Part shown: positions 1-16,614 of the stretch, one piece after another
Numbering within the stretch: the stretch's first letter is position 1
Layout of the letters: each line of letters starts with the position of its first letter
IMG/VR virus record: IMGVR_UViG_2639762982_000011
Reading direction: 5' to 3' (one strand)
Length of the DNA stretch: 16,675 bases
Source of the DNA: a virus
Taxonomy: Duplodnaviria > Heunggongvirae > Uroviricota > Caudoviricetes
Notes under the pieces: model-generated
What the model saw: the letters and a program-made list of their open reading frames with translations, nothing else
Database searches by the model: none
What the model was told of the DNA's origin: nothing
Program-made: the position numbers and the translations under genes

Positions 1-63
1 GCGGGGAAGTTTGCTTCTTTGAGGGGCAGGTTTTCGTTTACGGGGTTTAGCTGAACGGGACAT
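1..63 (-). CDS. 5' end of outward-reading ORF, partial (N-terminus MSRSAKPRKRKPAPQRSKLPR...); duplicate of the ORF starting at 16552
   Basis: ATG is the reverse complement of 61..63 and the frame stays open to the window edge. Identical to the right-arm copy, which continues YVVKLHDDDFFDEEDAEALR. Weak SD (AGGT) upstream. Confidence 0.45.
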   Translation of the reverse strand, partial: MSRSAKPRKRKPAPQRSKLPR

Positions 64-76
64 ATAACTACCTGAA

Positions 77-125
77 AGACAATGATATTGTCTGTTTTTA
101 TAACGGTAATTTCAGGCCATGACAA
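77..125 (-). promoter_or_regulatory. Putative sigma70 promoter plus palindromic operator (left-arm copy)
   Basis: Mirror of the right-arm element: -35 TTGTCA (rc 120..125), 17-bp spacer, -10 TATAAA (rc 97..102), then perfect palindrome AGACAAT-N3-ATTGTCT (77..93) between -10 and the ATG. Confidence 0.4.
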
Positions 126-621
126 GCCGCAGCCGCCAGGCTGCCTACTCGATATTAAATCCCATCCAGAATAATTGAATAACGGCTATTATTTAGTCGC
201 CGCAATATCTTCAAAGTTTTTTTCTCACCCCATTGCTTTTTGCGCACAGCTTATCTGGCTTGCGGTGCGCCGAAATGTAAATTCGCCTTCAGAGTTATCC
301 ACAAAGTTATGCACTTGCAACGAGGCCATTTTCCTCATACTGTGTTTGCACACACAGGAAATGGATATTTTATTAATTGAATTTTATTAAATAATAATGA
401 TAAGGAGAAAATTTGAGATGTAATCATGACATTAATAGATAGGGCCTGCATTACAGGCCCCAACTACATCAAGGAATTCACAGTTCCCTGATTTTTATAC
501 CGAAAACATGTGCCGTAAGTTCACGTTAACGACTTTCTTTCACCGAATCCAACTATATAGAGGTTGGGTTTCTACGTCAACGTGAGAGCACACAGCTTTA
601 CATTTGACGAGGATTACCCTG

Positions 622-759
622 ATGATTGTATTTTTTCAGTTTCTAAGTGCATTTTTAAATGCGCCTGTTCTTAGCCAAGTGCTGGCGATTGTCTTCATCG
701 TGGTTCTGATATGGTTTTTCAAGTCAGTGATAAACAGAGGCGTGCGCTGGCTTATTTAA
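622..759 (+). CDS. Small hydrophobic peptide, 45 aa (MIVFFQFLSAFLNAPVLSQVLAIVFIVVLIWFFKSVINRGVRWLI); single predicted transmembrane helix
   Basis: Hand translation; below the ORF-track length cutoff. GAGGA at 609..613, 8 nt upstream of ATG 622. Basic C-terminal tail. Confidence 0.3.
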   Translation: MIVFFQFLSAFLNAPVLSQVLAIVFIVVLIWFFKSVINRGVRWLI

Positions 760-1297
760 TGTCGCGCTGAGATATTAATTCCCTTGCTGTTTAACCATTT
801 TTTGTGTGTGCTGGTGAGCGTGTGAAGGCTCAATTTGTTGCCCACCAGTATTTACTATTTCTAAGCTCCACAGTGTCACTTCCGCACAAACAACTTAGCG
901 CGGAATCAGTATTCGGCCCAAGATGTAAAAAGCCAACCTGCGTTATGGTTCGCATTTCCAAATAGTGTTCTGAACGCCCGTGCCGGGCGCGAGATGTGGA
1001 TTAGCGTTCGCGCTATGCTGATATACGGCTTTAGACTTTCCATATTGCTGACAGGCTTTATCTGCGGTTTTTTGCAGGCTATCCAGCCCATACCAGCCAT
1101 CAGACTGGATGCTTACCTTTTCACCGTCATTGTATTGCACCATCGCGAACCCAAACATAGCTATCATCGCACCGACAATACCGCTTTTCCAAAAAGCTCT
1201 AATTAGGTCATTCGTTGCCTAATGTCCGAACTGCTAAAGCATCAAAGTTGCTGTAGAATCACCGCCAATTACTTAAGCCTGAAATAAGTGGAAGAAA

Positions 1298-13826: not shown

Positions 13827-13835
13827 GGGAAATGA

Positions 13836-15053
13836 ATGCCAACTGAATATGCTCGCGACAACCTTGGTCGCTATCAGACTGATGGATTAAGTGCAAAAGA
13901 CTTTAACAAGGTCTTCGATCTTATCCGTAAACAGCAGCGTCAGAATCGGCGAAACGCGCGACGTACACTCACCCCAAGGATTATGGGGATGCGTAACCGC
14001 GAACTTGAGGCATTCCTCAGCCTTGGGAAAAAGAAAGATGGCACCTACTTTACGCCCGAAGATATACGCAGCTTCAACACCTCAAGGCAGGCTCATAAAA
14101 CAAAATTCAAGAGCACGGTACCCGGCATTACCTATGCTCAGCTGGTGGCGCAGTCCACCAGCATTGATATAAAACGCGCTAACAACAAAGTTTCTGATGG
14201 CACAGGGATCAAAGCCGCGACATTCCTCGGGCTAAAACACAACCTTGCATTGATATCTGTTAATGCCTCGGATGAGTCGGTCCACCAGCATCACCGTGTC
14301 AGAATTCGATTTGAGGAATGGGATAAAGCCGTTGAGGATATTGCTGAAGACGGTGCGAAAAAAGCCCGAATCGCTGCCGATCTCTGCAAGGGCCGGGTAT
14401 CTTTCGACTGTGATTGTGGACGCCATCAATACTGGTATCGTTATATGGCCACTGCTGGTAACTATGCTGTCGCGCCGCCAAAAGAGTATGCATTCCCCAA
14501 GATCCGCAACCCTGATCTGACTGGTGTAGCCTGCAAACATGTGTTGCACGCTATGACGCGTTTTCAGTCTCCCACATGGCACAAGGCCATCATTATTGCC
14601 CTGGAAAAAGCAGCTGAACAGGTAGCCTTCGGCGATGACAAGCGGAAGACAACAACCTATTTCAAAGGCGAACTGGCTAAATCGCTCGCGCGCAACCGGA
14701 CAACAACGACGGATCAGGCTAAAGCTGCGCGTGAGTATGAGCTGTATCTGAAATCTCAGGATGCATTAGGCAAAAAACTACGCGCCAAAGATAGCGCCAC
14801 GGACAACGTTCGCCGGTTGTTAAAAAAAGCTCGCACCACGGCAAACAGGAAGAATGCCGAACTAAAAGCATCGCGGGTGAGGGAAGCCCAGGCTCGCGCT
14901 GAAGCCGACGCTCTCAAAAAAGCCCTGCAAACGCAGGCGAACAACCTCATAAAGTTTTTCATGAGTCAGGGAATGGACAAGGCCGCTGCCACCGCGCAGG
15001 CGCGAAGCATTCTTGAGACACAAATTAATGAAGCCCGTAAACGGAAAGGATAA
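13836..15053 (+). CDS. Hypothetical protein (405 aa) with SWIM-type zinc-finger-like motif and K/A/R-rich C-terminal tail
   Basis: SD AAGGGA 5 nt upstream of ATG 13836. CDCGRHQ...(x)...CKHVLH fits CxC-xn-CxH. C-terminal about 120 aa is low-complexity basic. Confidence 0.75.
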   Translation: MPTEYARDNLGRYQTDGLSAKDFNKVFDLIRKQQRQNRRNARRTLTPRIMGMRNRELEAFLSLGKKKDGTYFTPEDIRSFNTSRQAHKTKFKSTVPGITYAQLVAQSTSIDIKRANNKVSDGTGIKAATFLGLKHNLALISVNASDESVHQHHRVRIRFEEWDKAVEDIAEDGAKKARIAADLCKGRVSFDCDCGRHQYWYRYMATAGNYAVAPPKEYAFPKIRNPDLTGVACKHVLHAMTRFQSPTWHKAIIIALEKAAEQVAFGDDKRKTTTYFKGELAKSLARNRTTTTDQAKAAREYELYLKSQDALGKKLRAKDSATDNVRRLLKKARTTANRKNAELKASRVREAQARAEADALKKALQTQANNLIKFFMSQGMDKAAATAQARSILETQINEARKRKG

Positions 15054-15056
15054 TCG

Positions 15057-15785
15057 ATGGCTGGTTTCTTTGATGACATGTTTGAGGATACAGAACCATC
15101 ACAACAAGTGACTGGTGATAACCTCCCGGACACCGAATCGGATCCGGATATTCCAGGCGAAGGTTCTGAACTGATTGAAGAGGAAGATATTGATGCTGAA
15201 ATCGAAACCGATGGTGTTAACGTTGGTAATATTGTTGATCCTGTGGAGGACAATCACCTTCCCAATCTGGATCACGGCCTGCTTAGTGATTCTGGTGTGC
15301 GCCACCGTTATCAAGGTCATGCAGTTTTTAATAACCTTGTGCGGATGGACTGGCTCAAAGCAATCAAGCTAGACCCTGACTCATTCGATGCGGTTCTGTA
15401 TCGCGCAATACCTTACAGAGACAAAAATGCACCTGAAACGGCATCTGAAATAATAGAACCGAACCAACGCATATATGACTATCAGGATCCAGAACTGATA
15501 ACGGCCCTCGACTGCCCGGATGAGATGGACGCCTTCTACGCGCTATACGACGGCAGTGATAATACGGGAATTAGCGACAGTGCTTTAATCCTTCGGTTGG
15601 CCGCCGTTAATGTGCCAGTGGGTTCTATGCTCGAATGGCTGGAACAGCTGTCAGACGGCACAACCATTCGCCGCTTCTGGTACATCCATAAAATATTCAA
15701 TTACGGCACTGCCAGGGTAGGCAGTTTGTTTTATTGCGTGCCTTCACGCGCCTTTGAAGGGAATTTCATCGGTGATTCTGAATAA
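15057..15785 (+). CDS. Hypothetical protein (242 aa) with strongly acidic N-terminal region
   Basis: SD AAGGA 7 nt upstream of ATG 15057, 3 nt after the upstream stop. First about 80 aa are D/E-rich. Confidence 0.7.
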
Positions 15786-16470
15786 TCAGGAATGGCTACT
15801 GGCCATCTTTAAGAAAAAAGGTCTTACTCCAACCGGTAAGCTGGAATTTGCCACTATTGATGGCATTGATTCGGCGCTCGCACAGGCTTTAAACGAAGCA
15901 TTCGACTCACAAGTTGTCAGCTTTAATGATCGCACTAACCAGTCATTCAGGGAGTTCCTGAAACGCACACCAAGAGATCGCATAACGCTCGGCACTTTTA
16001 GTGATGTGAAGGAGTGGTTGTCGTCATTTGAAGCCGATCGCGCCGGGCGCAAAGATACAGCCTCTGCTGGCCCGGTAAATAAGCTGGCAATGCCGCTTGT
16101 GAATCTGTCTCGTTCTCCCGCGTTTTCAATTTATGAAGGTGAACTGTGCCGGGATAATTACGATGAAGGGCATGTCACCAATGAAAATGATGAGATTGAA
16201 GCCCTGGTATCGACTATCCCTTTCTCACTGGAATATTCGCTATGGATAGCCAGTGACGAGAAGGAATCTCTTGGGATGGTTTCAACTGCATTAGCATTCT
16301 GGCTACGAATGTATGCCAGCCTCGGGCAGGCATCTTTCACTCACACTGCCAATGTCGGCGGTTATGAGATACCGGTTACCTGTTACATAGAAGGGCAAAA
16401 ATCAATCGCATTTCAGGATCTGACCACCGGCACCGCCGACAACAGGCTGTTCGCGGTTGGATTCGAGTAG
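15754..16470 (+). CDS. Hypothetical protein (about 232-238 aa); start uncertain (TTG 15754 or GTG 15772)
   Basis: Overlaps the upstream gene end (operon-style coupling). Stop TAG at 16468..16470 lies inside the first bases of the right inverted-repeat arm. Confidence 0.65.
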
Positions 16471-16614
16471 GCAGCCTGGCGGCTGCGGCTTGTCATGGCC
16501 TGAAATTACCGTTATAAAAACAGACAATATCATTGTCTTTCAGGTAGTTATATGTCCCGTTCAGCTAAACCCCGTAAACGAAAACCTGCCCCTCAAAGAA
16601 GCAAACTTCCCCGC
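16463..16614. repeat. Right arm of perfect inverted repeat (partner 1..152)
   Basis: Exact reverse complement of 1..152. Contains a short hairpin GCAGCC-TGGC-GGCTGC (16471..16486) immediately after the last gene's stop. Confidence 0.9.
16490..16538 (+). promoter_or_regulatory. Putative sigma70 promoter (TTGTCA-N17-TATAAA) with downstream perfect palindromic operator AGACAAT-ATC-ATTGTCT
   Basis: -35 at 16490..16495, 17-bp spacer, -10 at 16513..16518, palindrome at 16522..16538, then AGGT and ATG 16552. Classic repressor-controlled promoter geometry. Confidence 0.5.

Follow-up and report, generated by a model that had tools for sequence, protein, structure and literature searches.

The virus record IMGVR_UViG_2639762982_000011 holds a stretch of 16,675 nucleotides (the window, meaning the whole stretch of DNA that was analysed) that is bracketed by an exact inverted repeat, positions 1-152 being the reverse complement of positions 16463-16614. 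This raises the question of what the repeat is and how it came to enclose the DNA between its arms, which includes a restriction-modification system. Our analyses show that the arms are almost certainly the terIS (left) ends of two opposed copies of ISEc84, a 1,830-bp insertion sequence (IS) of the IS91 family, and that the window ends inside both copies. The arm pair is an ordinary feature, which has already been described in the published plasmid pSvP1.

Extent and identity of the repeat

A repeat search of the window returned two arms of 152 nucleotides that are 100% complementary and spaced by 16,310 nucleotides, which is far above chance expectation; no second inverted repeat of at least 20 nucleotides is present within the window. 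One record of the plasmid collection, NZ_MN510446.1, covers the whole window, which corresponds to the reverse complement of its positions 110298-126971, with one homopolymer base differing over 16,674-16,675 nucleotides. This record is plasmid pSvP1_F (139,066 bp) of the porcine enterotoxigenic Escherichia coli (ETEC) O157 strain SvETEC. The plasmid was published by Venturini et al. 2019 as an E. coli P1/F hybrid (MN510446; PMC6906374). It was assembled from PacBio RSII data as a single contig that was checked with Illumina data, and it carries five copies of ISEc84, which belongs to the IS91 family, in addition to IS91 (PMC6906374). We rebuilt the whole plasmid sequence from three stretches of NZ_MN510446.1 and found six element copies in it, each of about 1,830 bp.

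The initial annotation, made from the sequence of the window, supposed that the repeat runs on beyond the left window edge, and proposed extending both flanks. This is indeed the case. In NZ_MN510446.1, both arms grow to full copies of 1,830 bp that are 99.9% identical, and the DNA outside the two elements is unrelated. The full copies differ at just 2 of the 1,830 positions (365 and 1770 of the element); hence, the repeat extends over 1,830 bp in all and is perfect over 364 bp. Of the left copy, 152 nucleotides are within the window, and of the right copy 213. The outward-facing open reading frame (ORF) that starts in both arms was also confirmed; the window includes 21 of its codons on the left and 41 on the right.

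To place the inner boundary of the repeat, the arms were aligned with element copies from three other plasmids. The six copies from these four plasmids share the start base (TCGAGTAGGCAGCC), and the flanks that precede it are unrelated. A common start base combined with unrelated flanks indicates that, at its inner boundary, the repeat stops where a mobile element ends. Moreover, blast searches against complete E. coli genomes gave different relatives for the arms and the interior: those of the interior (152-16463) are P1-like phage-plasmids with sizes of about 75-130 kb, and the arms match a repeated element that is present on many plasmids.

The genes of the element point to the IS91 family. 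In annotated records, the arm ORF is a gene of 121 codons (orf121), immediately downstream of which an "IS91 family transposase" is encoded. The 395-amino-acid protein encoded after the right arm, by a gene outside the window, matches the Pfam families Y2_Tnp (5.1e-39) and Zn_Tnp_IS91 (7.8e-19), and scores 287 bits against the NCBIfam equivalog NF033538 "IS91 family transposase", for which the cut-off is 125. It is a rolling-circle transposase of the HUH/Y2 type, by which the element moves, with an N-terminal zinc-binding domain, as is characteristic of the family. The orf121 gene starts at element nucleotide 90, and its stop codon overlaps the start of tnpA as TGATG; the Orf121 protein has no matching family in Pfam or NCBIfam. 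With respect to the left end, all copies begin with (T)CGAGTAGG (CTCG when read on the opposite strand), and a subterminal palindrome is located 8 nucleotides inside the element end. When folded as DNA, this palindrome is predicted to form a 6-bp stem, which is not significant in comparison with shuffled sequences (z = -0.99). The view that none of the standard mobile-element architectures fits this locus is thus refuted, since the arms are IS91-family termini. As to the recombinase gene that had been reported missing, none is present inside the window, but an IS91-family transposase gene lies right outside each arm, and its absence is due only to the positions at which the window was cut.

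The arm element closely resembles IS91 (prototype X17114; Fauconnier et al. 2026, PMC13181058). Both are 1,830 bp long and contain an orf121 of 121 codons; the TGATG overlap of orf121 and tnpA, a hallmark arrangement of IS91, is the same in the arm element; and in both the left end is cut at CTCG, a subterminal palindrome is present and no target duplication is generated (PMC13181058). In IS91, terIS contains one subterminal palindrome beside the CTCG cleavage site (PMC13181058). The two elements are nevertheless different. Isoforms of IS91 share at least 95% nucleotide identity with IS91 V1 (PMC13181058), while the identity of the arm element to the pSvP1 copy annotated as "IS91-like element IS91" is 90.4%, this copy and not X17114 having served as the reference. 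At about 90% identity to true IS91, the arm element is a distinct isoform or a separately named element. It corresponds to ISEc84.4 and ISEc84.5 of pSvP1 (PMC6906374), whose sequence (bar one homopolymer base), coordinates and arrangement are those found in the window.

Insertion sites and the enclosed segment

Comparison with related replicons, as had been recommended in the initial annotation, revealed that the interior is uninterrupted in P1-like plasmids lacking the IS copies, for instance NZ_CP122822.1. At least 80% of the window is present in 99 complete E. coli genomes. Apart from an IS1203 insertion in that plasmid, the interior is 100% identical to positions 23110-40733 of NZ_CP122822.1, where it is continuous with the hot gene on one side and with the remaining part of a baseplate gene on the other.

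This plasmid also provides the uninterrupted sequences of both breakpoints. The left one reads ...cattcGTTC|ATATTAAAT (also written ...cattcGTTC|A-TATTAAAT), and the right one reads ...GGATT|GAACCTCAC, i.e., GGATT|GAACctcac. No bases were duplicated or lost at either of them. Because GTTC/GAAC adjoins the breakpoints and there is no target duplication, both are canonical IS91 insertion sites, and the target tetranucleotides lie on the side where the oriIS (right) end of the element would join. The main targets of IS91 are GTTC and CTTG, and CTCG is a minor target (PMC13181058). Among the six copies in pSvP1, the flank at the oriIS end is GAAC for three, CAAG for one and CGAG for two. These are GTTC, CTTG and CTCG on the opposite strand, so that the copies have inserted at IS91-family targets. 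The two CGAG junctions are the boundary of a tandem of ISEc84 and IS91 and, in the P1 pmgB homolog, the insertion site T|CGAG. The target sequence was not found in PMC6906374, from which GAAC is absent and in which CGAG/CTCG was not searched for.

The two copies differ in their surroundings, and the asymmetry of the junctions that had been noted from the sequence is present. The left copy is a simple insertion within the ATG of hot, beside GTTC and without target duplication. On its outer side it is abutted head to tail by true IS91, which is followed by the P1 gene hot. The ISEc84.5-IS91 tandem (126820-130478 of NZ_MN510446.1) consists of elements that are 90% identical and share one base (...CCTATCGAT|CGAGTAGG...). 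The tandem originated either by successive use of one GAAC target, which is possible because the target survives insertion, or by insertion of one element at the terIS CTCG cleavage site of the other. The right copy is located beside GAAC inside the baseplate gene, and its outer end joins an IS3-family transposase fragment followed by F-type ETEC plasmid DNA. The right copy is therefore the junction of the P1/F fusion. It was correctly noted before that the right arm starts inside a stop codon, and this codon, TAG at 16468-16470, comes from the element end (TCGAGTAGG). The truncated baseplate gene retains native codons 1-230 of 261, followed by F-E-stop from the junction and the element end; the native gene in NZ_CP122822.1 is 786 bp long.

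These sequence comparisons identify the type I restriction-modification region of pSvP1 as native backbone of a widespread P1-like lineage, into which the elements inserted afterwards. It has been suggested that ISEc84/IS91 may have mediated the acquisition of restriction-modification (PMC6906374); the present comparison argues against this.

The features of the window are listed in Table 1. Together, hsdM, hsdS and hsdR form a complete EcoR124-type type I restriction-modification system. Short imperfect direct repeats are present inside hsdS (2889-2913 and 3492-3516; 3783-3810 and 3833-3860), and these probably correspond to the conserved regions between the two target-recognition domains of the protein. 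The stretch between the left arm and hsdM, previously described as 1.1 kb of AT-rich DNA abutting the left arm, does exist but is only mildly AT-rich (40-44% GC versus 38-53% elsewhere), and contains only short ORFs of 51-74 amino acids. It acts as a variable joint, in that related P1-like plasmids start matching the window at position 152, 286, 943 or about 1193-1208.

The sole difference between the window and NZ_MN510446.1 is a run of eight A residues at 9311-9318, which has seven in the plasmid record. This run is located inside the PmgS-like gene: with seven residues the gene encodes the annotated protein of 420 amino acids, and with eight an ORF of 401 amino acids results. In NZ_CP122822.1, which matches the window by 100% at the run of eight, the PmgS-like gene is annotated as frameshifted. 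The difference could be a sequencing error or a true slippage variant.

Finally, the window was searched with ATTGCTCTAATAAATTT, which we take to be the 17-bp consensus of the P1 C1-repressor operator. Four similar sites with two to three mismatches were detected, at 7594-7610 (-), 9687-9703 (+), 9736-9752 (-) and 13360-13376 (+), where 0.07 are expected. Two of them fall within a 30-nucleotide direct repeat (D1), and the site at 13360 is located just upstream of the baseplate/tail operon. Judging by sequence similarity, these sites probably mark C1-controlled promoters of the P1-like backbone.

Table 1. Positions of the features in the 16,675-nucleotide window.
Feature	Position	Strand	Remarks
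Left arm, first 152 nucleotides (terIS end) of ISEc84.5	1-152	-	Copy at 126820-128649 of NZ_MN510446.1
Left arm contents: terIS hairpin, Porf121 region, palindrome 77-93, orf121 codons 1-21	ATG at 63	-	
P1-like phage-plasmid backbone	153-16462		Native orientation relative to the hot side
Variable intergenic stretch	153-1297		From the hot start codon to hsdM, without annotated gene
hsdM, type I methylase subunit	1298-2854	+	Pfam N6_Mtase (2.5e-121), HsdM_N
hsdS, specificity subunit	2851-4107	+	Pfam Methylase_S, two stretches
hsdR, restriction subunit, EcoR124 type	4229-7345	+	Pfam EcoR124_C, T1R_D3-like, SWI2_SNF2, HSDR_N; annotation
Block of P1-type genes	7610-13054	-	
PNKP-like phosphatase	7610-8116	-	
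PmgS-like protein	8189-9394	-	Head morphogenesis
Glycosyltransferase-like protein	9754-10455	-	
NinI-like metallophosphoesterase	10452-11144	-	
Protein without identification	11126-11752	-	
VRR-NUC protein	12476-13054	-	
Baseplate wedge-like gene	13449-13826	+	PHROGs for 13449-15785: 1269, 1722, 1906
Two tail protein genes	13836-15053, 15057-15785	+	
IS-truncated baseplate protein gene	15772-16470	+	PHROG 1767, profile positions 1-231 of 261
Right arm, first 213 nucleotides (terIS end) of ISEc84.4	16463-16675	+	Copy at 110510-108681 of NZ_MN510446.1
Subterminal terIS palindrome GCAGCC-TGGC-GGCTGC	16471-16486	+	8 nucleotides inside the element end; mirrored at 129-144
Promoter-like hexamers TTGTCA (16490-16495)-N17-TATAAA (16513-16518)	16490-16518	+	Mirrored at 97-125
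Palindrome AGACAAT-ATC-ATTGTCT	16522-16538	+	Between the -10 hexamer and the orf121 Shine-Dalgarno sequence; mirrored at 77-93
Right arm orf121	Start at 16552	+	41 codons within the window; tnpA beyond the window edge

The promoter region and palindrome of the arms

In IS91, the terIS region contains Porf121, which lacZ fusions with IS91 V1 have identified as the active promoter of orf121 and tnpA (PMC13181058). The Orf121 protein acts as an inhibitor of transposition and makes cleavage at terIS more accurate, resulting in less one-ended transposition (PMC13181058).

The perfect palindrome AGACAAT-N3-ATTGTCT that the initial annotation placed in each arm is present at both positions. Within the window it occurs only in the arms, where 0.01 matches would be expected by chance, and its hairpin folds better than shuffled sequence (z = -3.4). 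The palindrome is perfect over 7+7 nucleotides in ISEc84, whereas that of IS91 contains one mismatch. When the arms are taken as 9 nucleotides, 8 of the 9 positions pair in both elements, and the mismatched position differs between them. Orf121 might bind this palindrome as an operator, and so autoregulate Porf121 and tnpA, or, as a 5'-terminal hairpin of the orf121-tnpA mRNA, the palindrome might control the stability of this transcript. We put this forward as a tentative and rather unlikely proposal.

Plasmid history and alternative explanations

A synteny analysis of pSvP1 against NZ_CP122822.1 showed that the segment in the window is in its native orientation, that positions 40734-55549 of NZ_CP122822.1 are missing, and that positions 55550-74084 are inverted. 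The 14.8 kb that were lost comprise dnaB/ban, tRNAs, dam and rdgC, as well as the 3' portion of the baseplate gene and additional baseplate and tail genes. A GAAC at 40734 opens the deleted block, and another, at 55550, follows directly after its end; these limits fit two insertions in the same orientation followed by recombination between them. The inverted 18.5-kb block, which comprises repA, parAB and beyond, lies between ISEc84.1 and ISEc84.2 (44922-67112 of NZ_MN510446.1). The left flank of ISEc84.2 (copy c4) and the right flank of ISEc84.4 (copy c1) together restore one IS3-family transposase frame (...ASGP|NQKWAGDITY), from which it follows that the 41.6-kb F part was a circle opened at its own ISEc84. 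This F-type segment contains the STb, EAST1 and LT toxin genes and repFIB, and is now located between direct ISEc84 repeats. Incorporation of the F plasmid via ISEc84 within IS3 has been reported, as have the inversion and the deletion (PMC6906374).

Based on these data, the following order of events may be proposed. Copies of ISEc84 would have inserted at canonical targets of a P1-like plasmid, and a circular F-type plasmid with an ISEc84 in its IS3-family element would have joined it through recombination between copies of ISEc84 or through transposition, either cointegrate-forming or one-ended. Subsequently, 14.8 kb of the P1 backbone would have been lost, and the 18.5-kb repA-parAB block would have flipped between a further pair of ISEc84 copies. 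Because this 14.8 kb of phage backbone is missing, pSvP1 is probably a defective phage that is kept as a two-replicon plasmid.

The suggestion that the arms are a substrate for homologous inversion holds in so far as inverted 1.83-kb repeats of 99.9% identity are a legitimate substrate, while flipping itself remains a possibility: RecA-dependent recombination could invert the 16.3-kb segment via this homology. The neighbouring ISEc84 pair of pSvP1, which flanks the inverted 18.5-kb block (synteny; PMC6906374), likewise consists of two near-identical opposed copies around a large segment, and the inverted state of that block demonstrates that inversions of this kind take place. The two pairs differ in that ISEc84.1 and ISEc84.2 have their oriIS ends inward and enclose inverted DNA, whereas the pair in the window has its terIS ends inward and encloses a segment in native orientation. 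Since the terIS ends of both copies point towards the segment, one-ended transposition after a failure of termination at either copy could take adjoining DNA of the segment along. None of the enclosed genes would be switched if the segment flipped, since each of the two promoters reads outward into the genes of the element.

Other explanations of the bracketed segment were considered. That the two copies form a composite transposon or exchangeable defence cassette, which moves the type I restriction-modification system with its neighbours or swaps it via homology arms, is very unlikely. It is true that two copies of one IS bracket a complete hsdMSR system, that one-ended transposition of IS91-family elements can co-mobilise DNA adjacent to terIS (PMC13181058), and that ISEc84/IS91 have been named as possible importers of the region (PMC6906374). 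However, the identical 16.3 kb is present at the same place, continuous with hot and the baseplate gene, in plasmids lacking the IS copies, and the segment, which breaks off within a structural gene, consists mostly of phage backbone rather than defence genes. In addition, with both terIS ends facing inward there is no pair of oriIS and terIS on one strand that bounds a unit. The bracketed unit was found in no other context among 5,426 complete E. coli genomes, and we observed neither the varied contexts nor the interior foreign to its flanks that would characterise a composite transposon. The idea of homology arms for exchanging a defence cassette is thus not supported, the interior being contiguous P1-like backbone that is IS-free in the 99 genomes. 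Nor is an insertion that split a duplicated locus, because the outward ORFs are IS genes and not parts of a host locus. An assembly artefact, that is, a hairpin or chimeric join, or a repeat gained at both contig ends, with only one real arm, is even less probable. The window does end within both repeat copies, with the left arm at its very edge, and the junctions are found in a single public record. Against this, both junctions lie exactly at the IS terminus and beside the GAAC/GTTC of the uninterrupted relative, which a mis-join would not yield, and the source plasmid was closed as one PacBio contig and curated with Illumina data (PMC6906374). The outer flanks also differ in a sensible way, with IS91 and then hot beyond the left copy, and an IS3-family fragment from the F plasmid beyond the right copy.

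Another type of inverted repeat is known from this group of genomes, as P1 carries an invertible C-segment with inverted repeats. A programmed invertible segment of this kind (Cin/cix), whose inversion switches expression, shares with the window the inverted repeats around a segment in a P1-type genome, but has next to no probability here. The repeats are ends of a transposable element and not cix-type sites, the enclosed backbone derives from another part of the genome, and the outward promoters drive the element's own genes, so that no interior gene would be switched. An invertase gene is present neither in the window nor adjoining it, and the adjacent serine invertase and the crossover sites within the repeats that typify a site-specific invertible segment were not found. 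For pSvP1, cin and the C-segment have been mentioned, and the cin homolog is truncated and located elsewhere in the plasmid (PMC6906374).

The interpretation as two opposed ISEc84 copies must itself be weighed against several points. The junctions and the orientation of the segment rest on the published assembly, not on reads. The two junctions occur together in one public record only, and neither (window positions 1-420 and 16250-16675) is spanned in any of the 5,426 complete E. coli genomes. The name ISEc84 is used as given in PMC6906374 and was not obtained via ISfinder. As to the history of the plasmid, the order of events is one that we infer, and recombination and cointegrate-forming or one-ended transposition have identical end products. 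Further points concern the promoter region. The arms had been described as carrying a good sigma70-like promoter; the hexamers with their 17-nucleotide spacing are present, but a consensus promoter scan of the arm did not call any site. The scan requires a T at position 6, which is absent from TATAAA, and therefore misses these hexamers. The failed scan weakens the description as a good sigma70 promoter, not the published activity of the region. The hexamers are presumed to be the published Porf121 boxes on the basis of their position, and the AGACAAT palindrome was not found mentioned in the parts of PMC13181058 considered.

The element, the plasmid and its rearrangements have been published, and the identification of the arms thus carries little weight as a discovery. 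It usefully illustrates that a window with both its ends in copies of one IS can mimic a mysterious, promoter-bearing inverted repeat. Two points go beyond the published accounts considered. One is the use of the minor CTCG target at two of the six IS91-family junctions, one of which gives a perfectly abutting tandem array at the terIS end of another IS91. The other is the origin of the restriction-modification region, which the comparison with IS-free relatives shows to be native backbone. If the palindrome were indeed an operator, it would add a transcriptional layer to the regulation by Orf121 that was described in 2026.

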